Assembly: GCA_041305185.1 (NCBI GenBank)
Contig: JBFYLW010000003.1
Location: 2,692 to 66,691 of the forward strand
DNA: 64,000 bases
From: Nanobdellota archaeon
Lineage (GTDB): Archaea > Nanobdellota > Nanobdellia > Woesearchaeales > ARS49
Direction of reading: 5' to 3'
The notes beneath the pieces were generated by a model, which had not been told where the DNA came from, made no database searches, and saw only the letters and a program-made list of their open reading frames with translations. How positions within the stretch are numbered: the first letter of the stretch is position 1; each line of letters starts with the position of its first letter. Positions 2,577 through 44,033 of the stretch are shown in pieces. A program made the translations under genes and the position numbers.

Positions 2577-3374
2577 ATGAAAAAAATATTTTTGGGATTG
2601 ACTTTGATTATTTTATTGCTTTCAGCTTGCACTCATTCGCAGGTATCTGGGAATGGTGTTGTGGAAGCGGGTAATGAGACTGTGGAAACTGCAGTGGGGC
2701 AGAATTCTACTCAAACAGCTGAAAAGCTTGCTGCAGATGAGAAGAAAGAGGCTGAAAGGGTTGAGGTAGAGAAAAAAGCAGAGGAGGAATTGATTAATCT
2801 GGCGAAGCTGAAGAAGGCAGTTAATGCTACTGTCGAGAAATGCAGCGGGTTTGAAGATGGGTATAACAGCACTTTCTGTTTTGCAGAGTATGGTGTGAAC
2901 TTGATGAAGCAGTATGGCAGGATTCAGGATTTGCATCCTGTTTACACTCTGTGTGAATATGCTGATGACAGTAATTTTTGTTATTTTTATGCTGCTGTTA
3001 TGCTTAATGGTCCGGGGTATTGCAATAAAGTCAAAGATAAGACTGGTTGTGAATTGATTTCTGATCCTTTGTTTTGCAACAGGTTGATTAATCCTAATCA
3101 GTGTCTTTTGGAAAGGGCAACGCTTATTCGTATTGTGAACAAGCCTGCGGCTCAGATGACTTGTGATATGATGAAAAGGTTTGATAAGTATCCTGATGCT
3201 GAAAAATACAATTGTGCTGAGATTGATTTTGGAGAAGTTTCTTATGATAAGGAGTCTTTCAAGGATCGTTTCTTTTTGATGCATTTTATGACTGCACTTA
3301 TGGATTTTGAACTCTATAATACTACCTTGGAGGATTATAATAGGAATAAGAGGGTGGACTATGAACAAGATTAA
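2577..3374 (+). CDS. Cys-rich secreted lipoprotein, family shared with 14326..14961 and 15429..16064
   Basis: Signal peptide + lipobox 'LLLSAC'; conserved motifs 'NSTFCFAEYG' and 'SNFCYFYAAV' shared with two paralogs; coiled-coil K/E-rich insert. Confidence 0.6.
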   Translation: MKKIFLGLTLIILLLSACTHSQVSGNGVVEAGNETVETAVGQNSTQTAEKLAADEKKEAERVEVEKKAEEELINLAKLKKAVNATVEKCSGFEDGYNSTFCFAEYGVNLMKQYGRIQDLHPVYTLCEYADDSNFCYFYAAVMLNGPGYCNKVKDKTGCELISDPLFCNRLINPNQCLLERATLIRIVNKPAAQMTCDMMKRFDKYPDAEKYNCAEIDFGEVSYDKESFKDRFFLMHFMTALMDFELYNTTLEDYNRNKRVDYEQD

Positions 3375-19662: not shown

Positions 19663-20439
19663 TCAGTAATTTTCTTCTTCAAATGTTGTTCTCGCAGGCT
19701 CAAAGTGGTCTTTTAAGGAATTGTATACAGTTCTCATTTCGTTTATTTCTGTTATGCTGAGTTTTGTTTTGTTGCCTGCGTCTATTAGGTTGATTGCTTT
19801 TTTTAGCGAGTTGAATACTTCTCTTGCATAGCTTTCTTCTTGTCTGGTTAACATCATTGTGCCGTATACTGCTGCGACATAAAAGTGTCCTTCTGGCTCT
19901 TCTGGTTTGAATTCTGTGACTTTTCGTATGTCTTCCAGTGCTTTGTCTAAATAGTCGTTTTCTGTTTGTGCTACTTTGAGTCTTACCTGGAATCTGTGCC
20001 ATCTGTATTGTGCTGTGTCTTGTTTTTCTATTGCTTTTGTAAAGTTTTGTTCTGCAAAGCTTAGGAATCCCTCTCTTGCGCAGATGAGTCCTTTTGTGTC
20101 GTATGCTTTTTCTGTTTCCTGCAATGTTATTGCTTTGTCTATCCATTCGAGTGCTTGTTTTATGTCTCCGCTTTGCGACAGGCAGTCTGCATATTCTATC
20201 ATGGAGTCGTGTGTGTTGTTTCTTTTGAGCATTGCTGTGAAGAATGAGTTTCCTGCGCGGTTGTATAATTCTTTTTTTCGTGTTTTGTCTGTTTCAGTTT
20301 CTGCTGTGTATTTCAGCATCATGCCTTTGTGGTAATCGTTCACTCTTTCTTCCAGTATTGGCGTTTCTGTTTTTTGCGTGCTTGCGCAGCTTCCTAGAAG
20401 TATGCTTCCCGCGACCAGCGCTTCGAGTAAACGTTTCAT
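19663..20439 (-). CDS. TPR-repeat lipoprotein
   Basis: Signal+lipobox 'LLGSCAST'; TPR-like helical repeats (AxxxYxxAG, W/Y-rich pairs). Confidence 0.5.
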   Translation of the reverse strand: MKRLLEALVAGSILLGSCASTQKTETPILEERVNDYHKGMMLKYTAETETDKTRKKELYNRAGNSFFTAMLKRNNTHDSMIEYADCLSQSGDIKQALEWIDKAITLQETEKAYDTKGLICAREGFLSFAEQNFTKAIEKQDTAQYRWHRFQVRLKVAQTENDYLDKALEDIRKVTEFKPEEPEGHFYVAAVYGTMMLTRQEESYAREVFNSLKKAINLIDAGNKTKLSITEINEMRTVYNSLKDHFEPARTTFEEENY

Positions 20440-20841: not shown

Positions 20842-21321
20842 CTAGGTTCCGTATGTGCATCTGAGTAATGCGATTTCAAGGTATCCTTGGCTGAAGCCGA
20901 GTGCTCCTGCTGCTTGTGCTATTGTTTCTGGGTGCGAATTTATTGCAGTTCGTAGTACATTATGACACCTGCTTCCGAGAAGATAGTTGCAGTCTTGTAT
21001 GTAATCTGCTATTCCTTTCATGTTTCCAAAGGCTCTTCCAAGCAGTGCAGATGCTGTGACTTCTCCTTTTGCGAATGCCGCCTGCATTTGCGTGTTTCTT
21101 TCTCTTAATGCAGAATCGCTTGATACTGCGAGTTCAGCAGTTTCGCAAATTCTTTCAAGTATTCCTCTTGAAGCCATTGATTCCAGTGCTGCAAGGTTTC
21201 CAAGCGCGTCTACTGCCTGTTCTGACGAGAAATTCATCAGATGCATTACGTGCGATACAAATGCAGGGTCTGCTTTTACAAGAGATCCTCCTGATCTTAA
21301 TGGCGATGTCATTTCATACAT
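20842..21321 (-). CDS. hypothetical protein
   Basis: 159-aa ORF, 9-nt spacing to next gene. Confidence 0.3.
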   Translation of the reverse strand: MYEMTSPLRSGGSLVKADPAFVSHVMHLMNFSSEQAVDALGNLAALESMASRGILERICETAELAVSSDSALRERNTQMQAAFAKGEVTASALLGRAFGNMKGIADYIQDCNYLLGSRCHNVLRTAINSHPETIAQAAGALGFSQGYLEIALLRCTYGT

Positions 21322-21330
21322 TTTGTTACC

Positions 21331-21798
21331 TCATCTGTTTTGTCCTATGATGTATTTTTGTGCTGCGGTGTACATTGCTGTTTCGATTGTTCTTCCGAAC
21401 TCTCTTACAAATGATTGTGGGTTTGGTATCGAGGTTCCATATCTTCTTCTGTGTTCTGATGCGAAATTTTTTCCTGCCTCGTTGACTGCATCTATTATTG
21501 TGCCTGACATGCTTGATGGAAGCACGTCGCTTAGGAAATCCGCTACCCCTTGTATTGTTCCTTTTGCTTTTTCAAGATAAAGTGTTTTGTGTACGTTTAG
21601 TTTTTCATATTCTGCTCTTTGTTCTTTGACTTCTTCAAGTCCGTCTTTTTTGAATAGTATTTTGCACCATCCCCTTATGCCTGTGGATTCTCTTTGCAGC
21701 CTGTCTGTTTCATCGACATGTTCTGCAACTTCTCCTACTTCTGAGTAGAATTTGTTCATTGCTTGAATTAATATTGTGTCGAATTCTTCAGGTGTCAT
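21331..21798 (-). CDS. hypothetical protein, tandem paralog of 21800..22261
   Basis: Shared motifs 'FDxILxxxMNxFYS', 'DExxRLQRESTGxRGWxKILFKxDGxEEVxxQRAEx', 'KAKGxxxGxxDF', 'RxYGxSxPxPxxFV'. Confidence 0.4.
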   Translation of the reverse strand: MTPEEFDTILIQAMNKFYSEVGEVAEHVDETDRLQRESTGIRGWCKILFKKDGLEEVKEQRAEYEKLNVHKTLYLEKAKGTIQGVADFLSDVLPSSMSGTIIDAVNEAGKNFASEHRRRYGTSIPNPQSFVREFGRTIETAMYTAAQKYIIGQNR

Positions 21799-21799
21799 T

Positions 21800-22261
21800 T
21801 TATCCTCCAGTGAGATATTTTTGTGATGCTTTATACATTTCTGTTTCTATTGCTTTGCCCAGTCCGCTTACGAATGCTTTTGGATCAGGGACTGAAAATC
21901 CATATTTTCTTTCATGGTTTGATATGTATTTGTTTACGGCTTTTGATGCTGCTTCTAATACTGCGTCTGCCATGTCTGGGGGCAAGGAGTCTCTTATGAA
22001 GTCTTTTATTCCGTATACTGCTCCTTTTGCTTTTCCTAAAAAGTATTCCATCCTTGTGGTGATTTGTTCAAGTTCTGCTCGTTGCTGGGTGACTTCTTCC
22101 ATACCGTCGTTCTTGAATAGGATTTTCACCCAGCCTCTAAGTCCTGTTGATTCTCTTTGCAGTCTGTTTGCCTCATCTATATCTTCTGATGCGTTGTATA
22201 GGTCTGAGTAGAAATTATTCATTGATGTCAGAAGGATTTCGTCAAAATTTTCAAGTGCCAT
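21800..22261 (-). CDS. hypothetical protein, tandem paralog of 21331..21798
   Basis: See paralog; 1-nt spacing. Confidence 0.4.
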   Translation of the reverse strand: MALENFDEILLTSMNNFYSDLYNASEDIDEANRLQRESTGLRGWVKILFKNDGMEEVTQQRAELEQITTRMEYFLGKAKGAVYGIKDFIRDSLPPDMADAVLEAASKAVNKYISNHERKYGFSVPDPKAFVSGLGKAIETEMYKASQKYLTGG

Positions 22262-26524: not shown

Positions 26525-28065
26525 AAATTCCATATGAGTTGAAAAATACTGATTTTATTATTGGTCAGATTTCGCAGTTGTACGCTTCTGACCCTGTTGG
26601 AGCTTTGAAGGAATATGTTACTAATGCTATTGATGCTTTTAGTGATGCTTCTTTGAAGGGCAGGAAGAAGGATGCTCGTATTGGGGTTGTTGTTAACAAG
26701 GAAGAGGGCACTATTGTTGTTCAGGATAATGCTCTTGGTATGAGTTATGATTTCTTGTGCTCGATTCCGAGCTCAATTGGTGAGAGTTCAAGGCGTGGCA
26801 TTAAGGAAATGCGTGGTGAGAAGGCTTTTGGTATGCTTGCTTATTGCGGTTTTGGCGATAAGGCTAGTGTTTTGACAAGGACTGGCGCTGATAATGGGAA
26901 TTACAGCAGTTTGCAGATGAAGCGTGGAGAGCCTGAAGCTGACGCTGGCCGTTTGGAAGCTCGTGTTGTTGACCGTACTGAGGGTTTTGCCAGTGGCACT
27001 CGTGTTACGATTACCGGCGTTCCTAAGAAGACTATTGAAGATTATTTTACTCCTCAGAAGCTTAAGCGCGCTCTTGGCGAGACTTATGAGCCTATTATTC
27101 GTGCCGATGAGGTCGGTATTTATGTTGGCTGGCACGGCAGGAATGAGCGTTTGGAAAAAGTTGAGCCTCCTGAGCATAAGGGCGAGAATATTCTGGCTGA
27201 TTCAGAGGAAACCACTAAAAAGGTTATCCGTCTTGCGAACGGTTCTCTTGTTACCGGCAGGCTTGATGTTAATTTGTGGCTGAATCCTGAGGGAGTGAAT
27301 GATAAGGTTGGTCTTTACTGCAAGGGTGTTCGGGCTATTGAGTCTGTTGGCAGGCTGAAAGAGCTTGAGGATTTGTGGAGCAGCGGCAAGCTTTCAGGTT
27401 ATGTTAATGCTGATTTTGTTTCTTTGACGCCTGACCGTGATGGTCTTGTTCGTGATGCTGGTTTTGATTGTCTTGTGGAGTTGTTGAAGGCTTACGAGCC
27501 GGTTTTGAATGAGCAGATTAAGAAGGCTGTTGACCAGACTGTGAAGAAGAAGGCTGATAGCCTTCTTGAGCAGATTGCTGAAAAGCTTGGCGATGTTTAT
27601 GCTAGAAAGCCTAATCCTTTCACAAAAGGGACTGGTGGATCTTTGAAGGAGCCCAGGAAGCCTGGTGTTCTTCGTGATAAGCCCAGAAAGCATAATTGTC
27701 CTTTTGCGCTTGACATTCTTGATTTTGATGCGGGTGATGCTCATAAGCGTTACAAGCTTGAGGAGGATGACTGGATTTTGATTAATTCTGGTCATAATGA
27801 TTTCAAGCAGCTTGCTTTTGGCCGTGGCGTGAAGGATAAGGATGCTTTGCAGTATTTTGCTGCGGTTATTGCTAATGCTGCTGCGTTTTCAGATTATGTT
27901 GACGGCAGGAAGGCTTTGGCAAAGGCTTCCAAGGAGGAGTATGATTCGAAAGCGCAGATGACTGCTGAATCCCAGCAGGCTATTGCTGAGCGTTCTATTG
28001 AGCTGAAGCTTGATTTGCTGGATACTTTTGGCATTATCAGGAAGAGAAAGAAGACGGAGGGATGA
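26521..28065 (+). CDS. GHKL-superfamily ATPase (HATPase_c_3 / MORC- or MutL-like Bergerat fold) with long C-terminal region
   Basis: N-box 'LKEYVTNAIDA' (ExxxNAxDA), G1 box 'VVQDNALGMS' (DxGxG), G2 'GEKAFGMLAYCGFG'; ATGA overlap both ends. Confidence 0.7.
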   Translation: MKIPYELKNTDFIIGQISQLYASDPVGALKEYVTNAIDAFSDASLKGRKKDARIGVVVNKEEGTIVVQDNALGMSYDFLCSIPSSIGESSRRGIKEMRGEKAFGMLAYCGFGDKASVLTRTGADNGNYSSLQMKRGEPEADAGRLEARVVDRTEGFASGTRVTITGVPKKTIEDYFTPQKLKRALGETYEPIIRADEVGIYVGWHGRNERLEKVEPPEHKGENILADSEETTKKVIRLANGSLVTGRLDVNLWLNPEGVNDKVGLYCKGVRAIESVGRLKELEDLWSSGKLSGYVNADFVSLTPDRDGLVRDAGFDCLVELLKAYEPVLNEQIKKAVDQTVKKKADSLLEQIAEKLGDVYARKPNPFTKGTGGSLKEPRKPGVLRDKPRKHNCPFALDILDFDAGDAHKRYKLEEDDWILINSGHNDFKQLAFGRGVKDKDALQYFAAVIANAAAFSDYVDGRKALAKASKEEYDSKAQMTAESQQAIAERSIELKLDLLDTFGIIRKRKKTEG

Positions 28066-28397
28066 AAATGTCATTGGAAAGAGCATACAATAACTGCAGA
28101 ATCTGTTATTTCGAATTAAAAGGAACCGGCTTTCAGAGTAGAGTAGTAAAACCAAGTTTTGGAGAAATACTCGTAAGTAGCAATCATGGTGAAAGGGCGA
28201 TGAACGAGGCGATGAAAGCACTTGAGGAAGAGATTCCTTCAGAGTTTCGTTCTGGTTGTGTAACAATGGAAAGAAGAAGGCCTGCTTATGAAGCCTTGAA
28301 AGTTTGTGCTAAATGTGATGGTAAAAGTCCGGCCATTGCAGAGTTTCTTGAAAAAGCATTGACGGACATTTTTGGAAAGAAGGAGGAACAAAAATGA
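28062..28397 (+). CDS. small zinc-ribbon-like protein
   Basis: Two CxxC pairs ('CRIC' near N-terminus, 'CAKC' near C-terminus); ATGA-coupled. Confidence 0.4.
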   Translation: MKMSLERAYNNCRICYFELKGTGFQSRVVKPSFGEILVSSNHGERAMNEAMKALEEEIPSEFRSGCVTMERRRPAYEALKVCAKCDGKSPAIAEFLEKALTDIFGKKEEQK

Positions 28398-29563
28398 GCT
28401 ATGGAATGAGTTTCGGGTTTAGTCAGGAGCAGCGTTTGGATCATAAGATGAGCTTGCGTCAGGAGCACAGTGTTGATTATCCGAAAGTTATTGAGAGTAT
28501 TCGCAGCCATTTTAGCAGTACTGAGGATTTTCCTACTGATGTTTCGCGTTTGAAGCAATTGTTGAGGACGATTCCTCAGCGTCAGAATGGCAGGCTTGCT
28601 TATGTTATTGGTGGTGGTTGGGCTGTTGAGGTTTTGACTGGCAAAGCGCGTGAGCACGGCAACATTAACGTTCTTGTTGTTGATCCTAAAAGGACTACTT
28701 TGGAAAGCAACCGTTGTTTGGACTATCTTGGCGTTCAGTATTTGGATAAGGCTTTGGCAGATGCTTTGGTAAAGAGGGACGTGATTAAGGGGAATTGGAC
28801 TCGTGGTGAGTGTGATGTTTACGTTCCCAGCCACGAGTTTATGGTTGGCACGAAATTGCTGCCGAGAAATGTTGATGAAGGCAATCGTGACAAGGATATC
28901 GCTGACCTTGTTGAACTGCTTATCGTGCACGCTCCTGATGTTAAGAAGCTGGCTCGTGTGCTGGATTCTTTGCCTTATGTTAATGATGGCGATACTGTTG
29001 CGCGGATTGGTTACAGGATTTCTGGCTCTTTGAAGCCGGGCATTTCTTTGACAGATGATGGTTTTAGGGTGAACAAGCGTCCTAAAAGAAGCGTTGAGAG
29101 AAAGGCAGCGTACGCTCTTCGTTTGCTGAATGATGTTTTGCGTGAACAGCTTTGTGTTTATGATGAAAAGTGGAAAATGGCACAAGCAGGAAGAGTTCTG
29201 GAGGCACAACTTTCGATGAATGAATATGATGGTCTGAAAAAATATCACGAAAGGGAGGGTTCTGCTGAAAATTTCTTTAAGTGGCTCTCGGATAATCGTG
29301 AAAAGCTGGTTAATCCGCACAATAAGATTTACTACCCGAGGCACCCCGACAAAAAACCCATTTTTATGAATAAGACAGATTATGTTTCTGCTTTGGCAGA
29401 CGGGATTATTGACCGGGACGCTTTTGATGTTATGATGGAAGATGCTGAAAAGCATCCGCCTTATTCAGCTTACTCTGTCAGGTCTGTTTCAGAGGGCGGG
29501 AGTTATGCCTTGCTTGTCTGGAATCCTAAGGGTAAGCTGATTTACGAGAATTGGAAGAAGTAA
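28394..29563 (+). CDS. nucleotidyltransferase-fold protein, AbiEii-like (possibly catalytically degenerate)
   Basis: 'VIGGGWAVEVLTGKAREHGNINVLVV' resembles AbiEii/minimal NTase 'GGTAL...R.S.DIDl' but with NIN in place of DxD; later 'NRDKDIADLVELL' resembles AbiEii C-terminal motif. Confidence 0.35.
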   Translation: MSYGMSFGFSQEQRLDHKMSLRQEHSVDYPKVIESIRSHFSSTEDFPTDVSRLKQLLRTIPQRQNGRLAYVIGGGWAVEVLTGKAREHGNINVLVVDPKRTTLESNRCLDYLGVQYLDKALADALVKRDVIKGNWTRGECDVYVPSHEFMVGTKLLPRNVDEGNRDKDIADLVELLIVHAPDVKKLARVLDSLPYVNDGDTVARIGYRISGSLKPGISLTDDGFRVNKRPKRSVERKAAYALRLLNDVLREQLCVYDEKWKMAQAGRVLEAQLSMNEYDGLKKYHEREGSAENFFKWLSDNREKLVNPHNKIYYPRHPDKKPIFMNKTDYVSALADGIIDRDAFDVMMEDAEKHPPYSAYSVRSVSEGGSYALLVWNPKGKLIYENWKK

Positions 29564-29602: not shown

Positions 29603-30550
29603 ATGAAGGATATGAAGCGTAAAGTCATAAAACTCGGCAGTTCTACCTTAGTTACCTCTTTGCCTTCCAAGTGGACTAATATGCTTGGTGTTAAGGCTGG
29701 TGATGAGCTTGAGGTTACTGAGCGCCAGAAAGACCTCGTTATCAGCACTCAGAAGAAGTCTTCTAAGTTTCTTAAGACTCTTGATTTGAAAAAACTGAAC
29801 ACCAAGCTTTCTTTTGGTTATGTTGAGGCTGCGTATGTTTCTGGTGTTGATGAGCTTGAGCTTTTGCATGGTCCTTTTATCGTTCACTACAAGACCGGTC
29901 AGAAATTGAAAACTTCTGAGGTTCTTCAGAGCATGCTTTCTCCTTTGATTGGTTTTCAGATTATTGAGCAGTCTGAGGACAGGACTGTTGTGAAGGATAT
30001 TGGTCAGGTTTCTGATGAGGAGATGGATAATGTTCTCAGAAGAATGTTTTTGCTTATCAAGTCTATGGGTGAGGAGTGTTTTGAGGCTGTTAAGTCTAAA
30101 AATAAGCAGACTCTTGGGAGTATGCCTGTGCGTTATGATAATATTTACAAGCTTTACATTTATTATTTGAGGATGCTGAACAAGCGTGGTTACAGGGATT
30201 TCAGCAAGACTCCTGTGATGTACGAGTTTATTTCCAAGTTCAAGATGATTATCAGTGTTTACAGGTTTATTGGTGTTGAGGCTGTTTTCCTGAAAAAGCC
30301 TTACAGTCAGAAGGCTTTGAAGATTTTCGAACACGTTTTGAAGTCTTTTGAGAACCTATACAAGGTTTTTTACCAGTTTAATGATGAGAATTGTTTGCAG
30401 ATTACTCTTGACAGGAATGTTTCTATTGATATGATGAATGATTTGAAGAAGAAGTGTTCTGTTGAGGATGCTTTGCTTATCGGCAGGCTTTCAGTCATTA
30501 CAATAACGATTTATCACGCTTTGAAGTGCCGTTTTAACCTTGAGATTTAG
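29603..30550 (+). CDS. AbrB/SpoVT-domain regulator with PhoU-like C-terminal region (archaeal phosphate-uptake-regulator-like)
   Basis: N-terminal swapped-hairpin motif 'VIKLGSSTLVTSLPSKWTNMLGVKAGDELEV'; ~250 aa helical C-terminal part. Confidence 0.5.
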   Translation: MKDMKRKVIKLGSSTLVTSLPSKWTNMLGVKAGDELEVTERQKDLVISTQKKSSKFLKTLDLKKLNTKLSFGYVEAAYVSGVDELELLHGPFIVHYKTGQKLKTSEVLQSMLSPLIGFQIIEQSEDRTVVKDIGQVSDEEMDNVLRRMFLLIKSMGEECFEAVKSKNKQTLGSMPVRYDNIYKLYIYYLRMLNKRGYRDFSKTPVMYEFISKFKMIISVYRFIGVEAVFLKKPYSQKALKIFEHVLKSFENLYKVFYQFNDENCLQITLDRNVSIDMMNDLKKKCSVEDALLIGRLSVITITIYHALKCRFNLEI

Positions 30551-31427
30551 CGTTTATTTTTTCCAGTATCTTTTTGATTTCGCTGAAATTGTCTTTTTTG
30601 CCTGTGTTTGGTATGATGTGTAGGTTTTCTTCTGGTATTGCTGCTCTTATTGCTGGCAGTTCTTTTTCGTCGTAGTTGAATAGTATGATATGAGGTATGC
30701 CGTATTCGTACGCTCCTACTACTTCGTCATAATCGTGTCCTATGAATGCTACTTCTTCTTTTTGGTATCCGTTTTTTTGGAGCACTGTATCAAAGAATTT
30801 TGGTGCTGGTTTTTTGCATTTTACATCTGCATAAGATACTACTTCCTTGACCCCTCTTGTTATTCCCATTCTTGGGAGTGATTCGTATAGTTTTTTCCCT
30901 GGTTTTATTGCGTCTGTGACTATGATAAAATCTACCAGTCCGTCAAGGCTTTCTATTGTTTCTTTGACTCCTGGGAAGAGTTCTCTTTTTCTTTTTGAGT
31001 TTTCAGCGATTATTTCTTCGAATTGTACAAAGTTTTCAAGACCGTATTCCTGAAACAATGCCCTGTATGCGTCTTTTGCCGTGTCAGTGCCTGCATTCGC
31101 CTGGTATAAAACCCCTGGGTTGCGCGTCTGGATTTTGTATTTTTCCATAATTTTCAGCATTTCTTTTTCAGCTTTATCGCCTGCTAATTTTTTGTCAATG
31201 CTGGTTAATTTCAGGTAATCCTGTATTTTTTTGAAGTCTTCCTGGGTTTCCACTGGCAGGTTTTTATACGAAAAATTTATGACGTATTCTTTCATTCTTT
31301 CAAGGTCTTTTGCTATTTTGCCCTTGTTTATGCCTGTTTCTTTGTGTATGTAATTTACACCATAATTCCTGTCTTCATTGTCGTCAAACAGTATGTTTCC
31401 TCCGTCCGATAGTATTGCTTTTATCAT
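30534..31427 (-). CDS. HAD-superfamily hydrolase-like protein (non-canonical motif I)
   Basis: Motif II 'FIIVTDA', motif III 'KCKKPAPKFF', motif IV 'VAFIGHDYDEVVGAYEYG'; motif I 'AILSDGGNIL' deviates from DxDxT. Confidence 0.45.
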   Translation of the reverse strand: MIKAILSDGGNILFDDNEDRNYGVNYIHKETGINKGKIAKDLERMKEYVINFSYKNLPVETQEDFKKIQDYLKLTSIDKKLAGDKAEKEMLKIMEKYKIQTRNPGVLYQANAGTDTAKDAYRALFQEYGLENFVQFEEIIAENSKRKRELFPGVKETIESLDGLVDFIIVTDAIKPGKKLYESLPRMGITRGVKEVVSYADVKCKKPAPKFFDTVLQKNGYQKEEVAFIGHDYDEVVGAYEYGIPHIILFNYDEKELPAIRAAIPEENLHIIPNTGKKDNFSEIKKILEKINAKSQG

Positions 31428-36955: not shown

Positions 36956-37546
36956 TTGTGTTTTATTGAGGGGAAAACTTTATTATTATCCTGTTTTAGC
37001 TTTGGTTTTATGTTGAGTGAAGCTGATTTGATGTGTTTGCATGATGTTCTTCAGCATATTTTTAACTCCGGGGTGCGTTCTGGCTTGTCTTCTGTTGATC
37101 TTGTCGCGCTTTGCTGGGCTGCTTCTGAAGGAAAGGGCGGTTTTAATTTTGATTCTGATGTTCATAAACAGGTGGAAGAGGTGTTTGACCGCAAGCCTGA
37201 ATATCTTAAGTTGTATGAGTCTCTTCACGCGGTAAATCCTGAGTTTTCCATGGATGAGTTCAAGCGTCAGCTGGCTACGCGTGTTGGTCATTTTCAGATT
37301 TTGTATGGCTCTGCTGTTCAGGCTGGTTATGATGGTTGTATTGAACGGCTGTCATTTCTTGGGGAAAATTTTAAGTGGACTGTTGCTTATTTGCAGAGCA
37401 GGGGTGTTGATGGGAATACTTCTTTGGATAAGATGATGAGAATATTTTTTGCAGGCTCTCCTGATGCTGTTCCTGCTTCTGTGTATTCTGAGCGTATTTA
37501 TAAGTTTCAGAAGGCTTTGACGTATAATCCTGAAAAAAGTGAATAA
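36956..37546 (+). CDS. lytic-transglycosylase (SLT)-like domain protein, no signal peptide
   Basis: 'LCWAASEGKGG' (catalytic-Glu region), 'GHFQILYGSAVQAGY', 'IFFAGSPD' align with SLT ES/GLMQ/AYNAG motifs and with paralog 40193..40657. Confidence 0.45.
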   Translation: MCFIEGKTLLLSCFSFGFMLSEADLMCLHDVLQHIFNSGVRSGLSSVDLVALCWAASEGKGGFNFDSDVHKQVEEVFDRKPEYLKLYESLHAVNPEFSMDEFKRQLATRVGHFQILYGSAVQAGYDGCIERLSFLGENFKWTVAYLQSRGVDGNTSLDKMMRIFFAGSPDAVPASVYSERIYKFQKALTYNPEKSE

Positions 37547-38210: not shown

Positions 38211-38583
38211 AATCTTTGAGTTTCAGTGCTGTGTTGAATTCCAGTATTCCGAGCAGTTTTCCTTCTCTTACTACTGGTATTGAGTATGTTCCTATTGATG
38301 CCATTATTTCGAATGCGCGTTCATATGTGTCGTTTTCTATCGATACTGTTTCTATGTTTTTTGTCATGATTTCTTTGGCTTTGGCAACTTTTGGGTCTTT
38401 TTCTTCTGCAATTACTCGGTTGTTTAAATCTACTGTTGAGACTATGCCTACGGGTTTGTCAGTATTGTCCAGTACAAGTATGTGTCTTGTCTGGGTGTCT
38501 CTCATTATTCTTGATACTTCGAGTATTGTGTCATCTTCCCTGCATATTACTGCATCAGTTAGATGTTCCTTCTGGATTTTCAT
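38197..38583 (-). CDS. CBS-domain pair protein
   Basis: Two CBS-like units ('VSRIMRDTQTRHILVLDNTDKPVGIVSTVDL', 'AFEIMASIGTYSIPVVREGKLLGIL'). Confidence 0.65.
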   Translation of the reverse strand: MKIQKEHLTDAVICREDDTILEVSRIMRDTQTRHILVLDNTDKPVGIVSTVDLNNRVIAEEKDPKVAKAKEIMTKNIETVSIENDTYERAFEIMASIGTYSIPVVREGKLLGILEFNTALKLKDFGGK

Positions 38584-39841
38584 TTTTGCCTCCGCTCAGG
38601 TATTGTTTTCCCTTGTTATATAAAGTTTTTACGCCTTTTACTGCTTGTTTCGCGCCATACCATGCTCCTGTTGCTGGCAGGCAGATTAGTTTTGATATTT
38701 GGTCATCTGCAAAGCCCATTCCGGGTATTGATCTTGTTAGTCCTTTGTATGCTAGTACTGCTGCTGCCGCTACCACAAATGGGTTTGTTGCAATGTCTAC
38801 TAAGTTGTAGCCAAGGTCATCTTTCATCGGGACTCCTTCTTTCTTGATTTCGCTTCTTAGCTCTTTGCCTTGTTCTCTGTAAAGTTTCACGTTCTTTTCT
38901 GCTCCTTTTACTTCTTCTTCTCTTATGTTGATTCCTCTTGATTCAAGTTCCATTAGGATGTCTTCTATTTTGTATCCTTTTTTGACCATATCGATTATCT
39001 GCGGGAAGTATGATTCCAGTTTCTTGTTCTGGTCTGCTACCATTGTTTCGTTTTTTCTGAGGAAGTCGCAGAACTCTTTAGTTGTATTTTCACTTAGTTC
39101 TTTTCCATCGTAAAAGTCTTTGATTATGTTGTATATTTCTCCTACAAGTTGATTGTCTTTTCTTGCCTGGTTCAGCATTTCTAGACTGTTCATTCCTCTG
39201 TATTTTTCATATGCTGGATTTTTTATGGCCAGCATGACTTTTATGTATCCTAATGCGACTTGTGAATCTACCCTGTCTATGAATGGTATGTCGTTTCCTA
39301 TTTCCATTAAATTCTTGACCATTCCTCTCATTTGCATGGCTATTCTGTTGCATACTCTTGCATAATTTTCGTTTTCTTTGTAAACGTCTACAAGTTCTTT
39401 TACGAACTCTTTCTTTGAGGAATAGTAGTCTTTGAGTGTTTGTGCTGCTTTGTAGTCTGTTGCGCTTTTTTCTTCCAGTATTTGTATTGCTTCTTCTAGC
39501 TTGATTGCTGCAAGCATTCCTTCTGGTCCGCCTTTTGCCGCGTCTATCATTGTTTTTGTTGCAAACCTGCCGTATTGCATTGCGCTTTTTGCGTGCTTTA
39601 GAGGATCTTTGAATAGTTTGAGGTTCTGGAAAGCCAGTCCTGCTACAAGAATTTCTAATGGTGTTGCTATGACTTGCTTTTTGTTAGGTACTACTGCGTT
39701 AAAAATGTTTGAAACTGTGAAGTTTTTACGTGCATAATCTCGGGCTGCGTTTTTGCATCTCCTGAGTATGCTGTTGTTTTTGGCTTCGTCGTAATTATTT
39801 CCGTTTTTTCCGTAGTCTTTTTTTATAGGTTCGTTAGTCAT
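38555..39841 (-). CDS. hypothetical alpha-helical protein
   Basis: 428-aa intact ORF. Confidence 0.3.
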   Translation of the reverse strand: MTNEPIKKDYGKNGNNYDEAKNNSILRRCKNAARDYARKNFTVSNIFNAVVPNKKQVIATPLEILVAGLAFQNLKLFKDPLKHAKSAMQYGRFATKTMIDAAKGGPEGMLAAIKLEEAIQILEEKSATDYKAAQTLKDYYSSKKEFVKELVDVYKENENYARVCNRIAMQMRGMVKNLMEIGNDIPFIDRVDSQVALGYIKVMLAIKNPAYEKYRGMNSLEMLNQARKDNQLVGEIYNIIKDFYDGKELSENTTKEFCDFLRKNETMVADQNKKLESYFPQIIDMVKKGYKIEDILMELESRGINIREEEVKGAEKNVKLYREQGKELRSEIKKEGVPMKDDLGYNLVDIATNPFVVAAAAVLAYKGLTRSIPGMGFADDQISKLICLPATGAWYGAKQAVKGVKTLYNKGKQYLSGGKNENPEGTSN

Positions 39842-39895: not shown

Positions 39896-40657
39896 TTGTT
39901 ACCACCATATGGTGACTACATAAACAAAAGATTTATAATCTGGAACATCTTCCCTTCTGGTATGTTGTTCGATAAAAGATGGTTTAATCTCAGTCTGTTG
40001 AATATCGCAGCAGCTTTAGCTTTGACAGCTTGTGACAAGCCAGCTCCTTCTTTGGAGTCTAAACTTGCGCCTGTTCAGGTTGAGCAAAAGGCTGAAATTC
40101 CTGAATGGGATAAATACCTCTTGAAGGATTATCGTGAATATAATGCGCTTTTGCCGACGATATTTTAGGAGAGCAAAAGAACTGGTGTTCCTTTGGAGTA
40201 CCTTGCGATTATTTCCTTGACTGAGTCTACTGGCAAAGGTGGTCAGCGTTTTGAGCCTAAATTCAAGCAAAAGTATGTTGACCCTAATATTGATAAGTTT
40301 CTGCCTGTTTTTGATGAATTGAGCAAAAATGATTCTTCTTTATCTTTGGATGTTTTTAGGAAACAGCTTGCTACCAGCACTGGTCCTTTCCAGATTATGT
40401 ACTTGACTGCTGTTGAGCTCGGCTTTAGAGGTTCTTTTGAAGAGTTATCAAATCCCCGGGTTAATGCCAAATGGGCTGCTGAGTATCTTCGCAAGAAGGG
40501 TGTTTCATCTGCCACTTCTTTGAAGTCAGCTTTGACTATATACAATACGGGTTCTCCTAATGGCAAGCCTCATGCTGGTTATCTTGATCGTGCTATGGCT
40601 TACAGGGACCTGTTTTCTGAAGAGCATAGGGATTTGTTCCCTGTAGAAGGCAATTAA
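39896..40657 (+). pseudogene. SLT-like lipoprotein interrupted by in-frame TAG at 40166..40168 (N-part 39896..40168 and C-part 40193..40657 are in the same frame)
   Basis: N-part has lipobox 'ALALTAC'; region spanning the stop 'LLPTIF*ESKRTGVPLEYLAIISLTESTGKGGQRF' aligns colinearly with paralog 'LQHIFNSGVRSGLSSVDLVALCWAASEGKGGFNF'. Confidence 0.45.
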
Positions 40658-40775
40658 CTTATATATTGCAAATAATTCTAAAGTTATCACTATCAAGTTA
40701 CTATAAAAACGAAACATTTAAATACTAAAGAGTCTATTAACCACTGCATAGAGATTACACATCGGGGGTGTGACT

Positions 40776-41366
40776 ATGAAACACTTGTATTTTTTATTGG
40801 TGCTGGCCGTATTCGCAGCTGGTATTGGAATTGGCAGTTTGGTTAGTATCGGACTGTCAGGTGATAATGCTGTTACTTTTGAGACTAATACAGCTACAAG
40901 CCGTGGATTGAGTTTTAATCCTGTGACGCTTGCAGATGCTATCATTCAATCTGAGCCTTTGCAGGCTATTGCTAAACAGCCTGATTATGGTGGTCCTGTT
41001 GAGCGTGATTCTCCTTCTGATTGGGTTGCAGAATCAGAGATTGAGATGAGGCCTGATGGTGTTTTTATCAAGTTCAATAACCCTCAGTGGGCTATCCTTG
41101 CAGATACTAATAGTATGGATCCTGTTTTTGATACAGGTTCACATCTTATTCAAGCTTTTCCGACAAATCCTGAGCAGATTCACGTTGGCGACATTGTAAG
41201 CTACAATTCGCCTGTGGGCTTCACTATTGTCCACCGTGTTATCGAGATAGGCAATGATGAGGAAGGCTGGTATGCTATAATTAAGGGTGATAATAATCCT
41301 ACTCCTGATCCTTGGAAGGTCAGATGGGATATGGTTACTCGTGTTACTGTAGCTGTTATTTATTAA
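40776..41366 (+). CDS. signal peptidase I (S26 family)
   Basis: N-terminal TM; Ser box 'TNSMDPVF', 'GDIVSY', His box 'HRVIE', 'KGDNN' box. Confidence 0.65.
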   Translation: MKHLYFLLVLAVFAAGIGIGSLVSIGLSGDNAVTFETNTATSRGLSFNPVTLADAIIQSEPLQAIAKQPDYGGPVERDSPSDWVAESEIEMRPDGVFIKFNNPQWAILADTNSMDPVFDTGSHLIQAFPTNPEQIHVGDIVSYNSPVGFTIVHRVIEIGNDEEGWYAIIKGDNNPTPDPWKVRWDMVTRVTVAVIY

Positions 41367-43707: not shown

Positions 43708-44033
43708 GCTAGTTTCAGCCCGTTTGGTACTTTTCTTTCTGGTTGTGCTATGACTACGTCTCCGTTTTCGAGTACGAATCCTGTTGTTAACACCTCAGAT
43801 ATATAATTTCCTATTTGTTTTGGCGGGAAATTTGTTACGCAGATGACCTGCTTTCCTAGTAATTCTTCTTTTTTGTATAGAGTTGTGATTTGTGCGCTGG
43901 ATTTTCTTGTTCCGAATTCTCCGAAATCAATCACTAGTTTGTATGCTGGTTTTTTTGCTTCTGGAAAGTCTTCTATTTTGATTATCGTGCCTACTCTTAT
44001 GTCCACATTTTCGAATTCTTTCCAGGTTATCAT
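43704..44033 (-). CDS. CsaA/Trbp111-like tRNA-binding domain protein
   Basis: '[29 protein letters not shown]...[34 protein letters not shown]' OB-fold tRNA-binding pattern. Confidence 0.7.

Follow-up and report, generated by a model that had tools for sequence, protein, structure and literature searches.

Family 1 lytic transglycosylases (SLT; PF01464, CAZy GH23), a group that includes MltE and Slt70 of E. coli, SltB1 of P. aeruginosa and gp144 of phage phiKZ, are the closest described counterparts of the protein considered here. Proteins with murein lytic transglycosylase domains have also been reported in Woesearchaeota (PMC8204110 and PMC9723730, cited in PMC12352652). In the passages concerned they are interpreted as tools to attach to or attack bacteria (PMC8204110, PMC9723730, PMC12352652), and as described there they are mostly very large, up to ~3,000 aa. 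Two further systems bear on such a gene when a stop codon crosses it. One is pyrrolysine (UAG) decoding in methanogenic archaea, where homology likewise continues across an in-frame TAG; the other is the segregation of nonsense and frameshift pseudogene alleles in natural microbial populations.

The locus lies in a stretch of archaeal DNA of 64 kb, analysed as a whole and called the window below. Very probably, it carries a real, recent and strain-specific nonsense allele (CAG to TAG) of a divergent SLT-type gene, an ordinary pseudogene polymorphism rather than a case of recoding. The frame and its interruption are made up of the following features.

39896-40657, + strand: frame with one internal stop, closed by TAA at 40655-40657
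39896-40168, + strand: upstream ORF at its maximal extent, from a TTG start
40166-40168, + strand: premature TAG at codon 69, the sole interruption; CAG (Gln) to TAG, a C-to-T transition on the + strand
40169-40657, + strand: rest of the SLT-like catalytic domain, severed from the export signal
40193-40657, + strand: downstream ORF, 154 aa

The original prediction described two ORFs of the same frame split by one TAG and homology to a paralog that runs straight across the stop, and both observations hold. From 39896 to 40657 the frame is open apart from this codon, and the joined product aligns with the paralog at 36956..37546 at 33% identity over 173 residues (BLASTP, E 1e-27). An ungapped stretch of this alignment crosses the stop (LQHIFNSGVRSGL against LPTIFXESKRTGV), and the match across the TAG is far beyond chance. 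Orthologs likewise align across the position of 40166-40168. All 30 more distant homologs have a sense residue at the position of the stop, and its identity varies (Q, K, A, N, G, E, S, D, T).

Comparison of orthologous loci in related genomes, which the original prediction had suggested as a check, finds the gene intact in three related species. An SLT gene of 231-233 aa occupies the syntenic locus in three related Woesearchaeota assemblies (the intact syntenic genes are among loci L010-L014), within the order M50 peptidase, 212-aa gene, CBS gene, ~425-aa gene, SLT gene and ~197-aa gene. The neighbour downstream of the SLT gene in the window, at 40770-41366 (+), is the one of ~197 aa that is kept in related species. 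It carries SMDP and GDNN motifs, which we take to be typical of type I signal peptidases, and has no Pfam match at E<=0.01.

The assignment of the protein to the SLT group draws on domain, motif and fold evidence. The joined protein scores 23.2 bits against Pfam SLT (PF01464), marginally above the gathering cut-off of 21.3, and P0001, a 219-aa relative with 99% identity, scores 24.3 bits. Pfam SLT matches 20 of the 31 aligned family members, with a best E of 4.9e-10, and three members carry LysM domains. A word-index search of 5.8 billion proteins returned five relatives, P0001 and four orthologs of 230-246 aa with 54-61% identity; one of these orthologs, P0004, bears the NCBI name 'transglycosylase SLT domain-containing protein [Candidatus Woesearchaeota archaeon]'. 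When 1.8 billion cluster representatives were searched with a profile, 367 clusters matched at E<1e-3 but only 16 at E<1e-30, and the close clade of the gene, at 16 clusters, is small. Among GTDB representatives, an ortholog occurs only in 'MAG: Candidatus Woesearchaeota archaeon isolate FT1_394'. Elsewhere in the window, the large subunit of a NiFe-hydrogenase clusters at at least 90% identity with proteins named Candidatus Woesearchaeota archaeon. Both results place the organism in the Woesearchaeota (DPANN).

Members of the family with an N-terminal anchor share the motifs L-[TV]-E-[ST], G-P-F-Q-I-M-Y and Y-N-T-G-S, together with a charged and hydrophobic N-terminal segment. L-T-E-S is conserved in the anchored orthologs and lies in helix 66-77 of an AlphaFold2 model of P0001, and the position of its Glu in the sequence makes this residue the candidate catalytic one. 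The model is all-helical, with a mean pLDDT of 74.9 and a core above 80; residues 1-40 are disordered and are followed by a helix at 46-62 (P0001 numbering). When the model was compared with the PDB by Foldseek, the best 40 matches were all lytic transglycosylases or phage endolysins, SltB1, MltE, Slt70 and phiKZ gp144 among them, at weak scores (E 0.07-1, TM 0.35-0.45). A sequence-profile search of the PDB with the family alignment gave no meaningful match. Because the fold match is weak and the PDB profile search came back empty, the protein is assigned at superfamily level only, as a divergent member of the SLT/GH23-like superfamily with a predicted activity. The label 'lytic transglycosylase' given by the original prediction stands at that level, through the Pfam SLT score just above threshold, the E-S motif and the fold matches.

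Set beside the family 1 lytic transglycosylases, the protein has the same Pfam SLT domain above gathering score, the same E-S motif after a 'G-V-P...L-L-A-I' helix, and the same G-x-x-Q-I and Y-N-x-G motifs, while the all-helical P0001 model looks lysozyme-like, with weak PDB matches of which the best 40 are lytic transglycosylases or endolysins. Like MltE, the protein is small, single-domain and, by prediction, lipobox-anchored. It departs from the group in being very divergent (23-24 bits in Pfam; Foldseek E 0.07-1), in a ~40-residue insertion between the E-S motif and the GPFQI motif, and in being encoded by an archaeon without murein of its own, in which the activity is a predicted one. 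With the murein transglycosylases reported in Woesearchaeota it shares the phylum, the catalytic superfamily and the role proposed against bacterial walls. It differs from them, so far as the cited passages describe them, in its size and architecture (231 aa, an N-terminal anchor and a catalytic domain), in its membership of a small clade and in its inactivation in one strain.

The N-terminal part of the gene, upstream of the stop, contains the following features.

39932-39939, + strand: TATA-box-like TTTATAAT, ~27 nt upstream of ATG 39962
39962-40168, + strand: ORF of the N-terminal fragment, 68 aa, with the signal peptide MLFDKRWFNLSLLNIAAALALTA; ends at the premature TAG
40031-40033, + strand: Cys codon of a lipobox-like L-T-A-C, in the 68-aa fragment

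The native start is almost certainly ATG 39962. TTG 39896 was considered and set aside: gene callers pick ATG 39962, the conserved TATA-like box lies upstream of it, and the n-region that it opens matches that of the orthologs. The two ORFs of the original prediction are kept, with the start of the upstream one moved from 39896 to this likely ATG. In two of the syntenic loci (L011 and L013) the orthologous ATG is preceded, with the same spacing, by an equivalent box, TTTATATA. No SD motif precedes ATG 39962. TTTATAAT is likely the archaeal promoter of a leaderless transcript, a geometry that we presume from general features of archaeal promoters.

The N-terminus reads MLFDKRWFNLSLLNIAAALA-L-T-A-C, a charged n-region and a hydrophobic h-region that end in a match to the lipobox pattern [LVI][ASTVI][GAS]C; a low-complexity linker and part of helix 1 of the SLT-like domain complete the 68-aa fragment. 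The original prediction called the protein a lipoprotein. A lipobox-like L-T-A-C is indeed present, but the Cys is absent from the orthologs except P0010 (L-T-G-C), the remaining ones having an N-terminal hydrophobic anchor without Cys. With this motif as its only basis, the lipoprotein label is a putative one. Lipobox-like N-termini also occur at 2577-3374 (+) and 19663-20439 (-), as MKKIFLGLTLIILLLSAC and MKRLLEALVAGSILLGSC, and the recurrence of such motifs suggests that lipobox-type signals may be used repeatedly in this DPANN archaeon.

Near-identical strains reveal the codon that the stop replaced. Exact-protein look-ups and a pattern scan recovered five contigs overlapping the gene, with nucleotide identities of 99.8-99.9%. 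Four of the five, ~99.8% identical to the window, read CAG (Gln) at 40166-40168. These are Logan SRR5468431, Logan SRR5468423, JGI Ga0105093_10000640 and contig 7 of GCA_964387435.1, that is, three sequencing data sets and one MAG (L003, L006, L007 and L008). The fifth, contig JBFYLV010000014.1 of GCA_041305225.1 (L009), shares the TAG with the window, and there the pieces are called as 68-aa and 154-aa products. An exact-pattern scan around the stop found no match among GTDB representative genomes, and a metagenome scan for the stop region matched only one contig, with CAG. Two further sites vary among these alleles.

39974-39977, + strand: polymorphic A homopolymer; A4 in the window, L009 and the JGI protein P0158, A3 in L003, L006, L007 and L008
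40609-40610, + strand: two adjacent substitutions on the TAG haplotype; GAT ATG (D M) in the sisters, GAC CTG (D L) here

P0158, an intact allele of 231 aa seen as a protein, starts at the ATG with a complete signal peptide and has Gln where the stop lies and Met at 40609-11. Met is also the ancestral state at 40609-11, as judged from the orthologs. Apart from the stop, the TAG allele differs from the intact protein only by this Met to Leu change, and the loss is judged recent for that reason; the allele shows no other sign of decay. A case for relaxed selection, built on 4 differences in ~700 bp against a background of ~0.17%, was dropped because the events are too few. Of the options that the original prediction left for the stop, a recent nonsense mutation is the one that the evidence favours, given CAG in near-identical strains, the intact 231-aa allele and the intact syntenic orthologs.

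A sequencing or assembly error, with CAG as the true sequence and the gene intact, would also account for a single-base difference from contigs that read CAG, and it was among the options first raised. It is very unlikely, since another assembly, not identical to the window, has the same TAG on a consistent haplotype. Over 9.5 kb, nine other sites distinguish the consensus of that assembly (L009) from the window, and both carry the linked variants A at 39270, A4 at 39974-77, T at 40166 and CC at 40609-10, so that the TAG travels with four other variant positions (39270, the A4 run, 40609 and 40610). A cluster look-up places the split products on two NCBI contigs, which likewise argues against an error. 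It may be that both assemblies with the TAG derive from a single sample.

A second lesion affects the signal peptide. The A4 alleles have a K-R n-region that agrees with the orthologs, and A4 is therefore judged ancestral and A3 derived. A4 keeps ATG 39962 in frame; A3, a 1-nt deletion in the signal peptide, shifts the frame. In the A3 allele the leaderless ATG 39962 opens a mini-ORF of 12 codons whose TGA overlaps the TTG at which callers start the gene, and the called product begins MNIAAALALTAC, without the charged n-region. This allele (P0001/P0156), with its signal peptide truncated and the gene otherwise intact, is the commonest assembled allele among the sisters. As read from these sequences, two different lesions and one intact allele coexist among near-identical strains. 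The locus resembles segregating pseudogene alleles of natural microbial populations in its single-nucleotide stop within an otherwise conserved gene, in the intact alleles of strains more than 99.8% identical and in the near absence of further decay. It is set apart from them by a second independent lesion, A4 to A3, that is the commonest state in the sisters.

Beyond the stop, the downstream fragment contains the GPFQIMY and YNTGS motifs and the following features.

40193, + strand: TTG, a possible restart, with GGTG 5 nt upstream
40223-40225, + strand: candidate catalytic Glu of L-T-E-S, within the downstream fragment

On two NCBI contigs the downstream ORF is called as a product of its own (P0155, 154 aa); P0157 is the 68-aa product. 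Reinitiation at TTG 40193 could in principle make the locus a functional split gene, whose signal-less SLT-like protein would have a cytoplasmic role like that of a signal-less subfamily of paralogs. Such a subfamily is conserved, and the GGTG stands at the correct spacing: internal genes of operons in the window use SD-like motifs (GGAGG or GGTGA) that lie 5-9 nt before their starts. The GGTG is, however, mere Gly-Val coding sequence that is identical in intact alleles, the change is very recent and limited to one strain lineage, and the fragment would, according to the structural model, be without helix 1 of the domain. The fragment moreover keeps the catalytic Glu that the signal-less subfamily has lost, which places it outside that subfamily. 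A functional split gene is on these grounds highly improbable; a conceivable product of reinitiation at TTG 40193 would be a cytoplasmic fragment in a murein-free cell.

Programmed recoding, in which read-through of the TAG, or its decoding by pyrrolysine or a suppressor tRNA, would yield the complete enzyme of 231 aa, deserves almost no credence: the frame and the homology do continue past the stop and TAG is the rarest stop in the window, but the TAG is not conserved (CAG in 99.8%-identical sisters, variable sense residues in 30 homologs) and still terminates ~10 long ORFs. The stops of the 69 long non-overlapping ORFs in the window are 10 TAG, 30 TAA and 29 TGA, which agrees with the original prediction that genome-wide recoding is unlikely. 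The option of programmed read-through finds no support, given the lack of conservation and of a stimulatory RNA structure; shuffled versions of the 131 nt that begin at the stop fold just as well (z -0.25). A search for a Pyl or suppressor tRNA came back negative, as the 64-kb window contains no tRNA and no Rfam family. No other homology-supported in-frame TAG occurs in the genes of the window. Same-frame open stretches elsewhere in it were rejected as skew-opened non-coding frames or adjacent genes with no homology across the stop. The resemblance to methanogens that decode UAG as pyrrolysine is limited to an in-frame TAG across which homology continues; here the TAG is not conserved, sits at a variable Gln/Lys/Ala site and is used as a terminator, with no Pyl elements within the window. 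To our knowledge, Pyl machinery is not known in Woesearchaeota.

The paralog that aligns across the stop is a different kind of protein.

37010-37546, + strand: SLT-like paralog, 178 aa, with the likely start ATG 37010 (maximal ORF from TTG 36956)

It has no signal peptide, A-A-S replaces the catalytic T-E-S, and it has no Pfam match. The alignment with it stands as originally described, but the paralog is not an equivalent enzyme, given the missing signal peptide and the replaced catalytic Glu. The paralog groups with P0012, P0017, P0027 and P0028 in the signal-less subfamily. At the orthologous loci L010-L013 it is absent, and the M50 peptidase gene there abuts the 212-aa gene. It probably lacks transglycosylase activity and may be a derivative that stays in the cytoplasm and is non-catalytic; that it serves as a backup for the broken gene cannot be assumed.

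The base composition of the window bears on the type of mutation involved. At four-fold degenerate sites, counted on the + strand, the ratio of T to A is 1973:395 in + genes and 1527:305 in - genes, an AT skew of -0.67 for both orientations that is accompanied by a GC skew of +0.16/+0.17. The sign of the skew is constant across the 64 kb. The syntenic loci of other Woesearchaeota species (L010-L013) have the same bulk skew, at an AT skew of ~-0.3. Since the + strand has ~5 times as much T as A, and more G than C, in either gene orientation, C-to-T on the + strand is the favoured type of mutation. In L009 (GCA_041305225.1), four + strand C-to-T differences from the window and from L006/L008 cluster within 80 nt, at window-equivalent 43716-43794.

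Other differences among the strains are unevenly spread. The HAD-family hydrolase gene at 30534-31427 (-) shows ~108 differences in ~900 bp against L001-L004, where the rest of the overlap differs by 0.1-0.2%; to judge from this pattern, recombination among strains looks to have replaced the allele. There are also smaller patches of divergence near 27500-29000 and 32500. At the junction of the 212-aa gene and the CBS gene, 38263-38269, several independent assemblies break at one and the same place (L001, L002 and L005 on one side, L006 and L008 on the other), probably a breakpoint of strain variation at which short-read assemblies fragment. The window also holds tandem paralogs at 21331-21798 and 21800-22261 (-), head to tail in the same frame at 49% identity (E 1e-59), with a more distant third copy upstream at 20842-21321; the set has no known function.

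Under the preferred reading, a recent nonsense allele, the locus is the orthologous copy of a gene, conserved at this genomic position in a group of Candidatus Woesearchaeota, for a membrane- or lipid-anchored divergent SLT-type lytic transglycosylase of 231 aa. The enzyme would act outside the cell on bacterial peptidoglycan, as the family and the literature on Woesearchaeota suggest. A single C-to-T transition turned codon 69 from CAG into TAG in the strain sequenced. Translation from the leaderless ATG 39962 would then stop after 68 residues, which take in the signal peptide with its lipobox, the linker and part of helix 1, and would leave the catalytic domain with its E-S Glu devoid of an export signal and of its first helix. 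The presumed outcome is a recent loss-of-function pseudogene that segregates among near-identical strains; we infer the loss of function, as we do the enzymatic activity and its target.

For annotation, the 68- and 154-aa ORFs are best described as one SLT-domain pseudogene and not as two hypothetical proteins, and the locus gives no evidence of stop-codon recoding in this archaeon. It is unlikely that the null alleles reflect recurrent, selected loss of an exported peptidoglycan-cleaving enzyme rather than drift; if they did, the enzyme might be a shared 'public good', or strains might be switching bacterial partners. Enzymes predicted to degrade bacterial walls have a central place in the view that some Woesearchaeota are predators of bacteria or attach to them, and two disabling alleles beside an intact one indicate that a gene for such an enzyme can be dispensable at the level of the strain.
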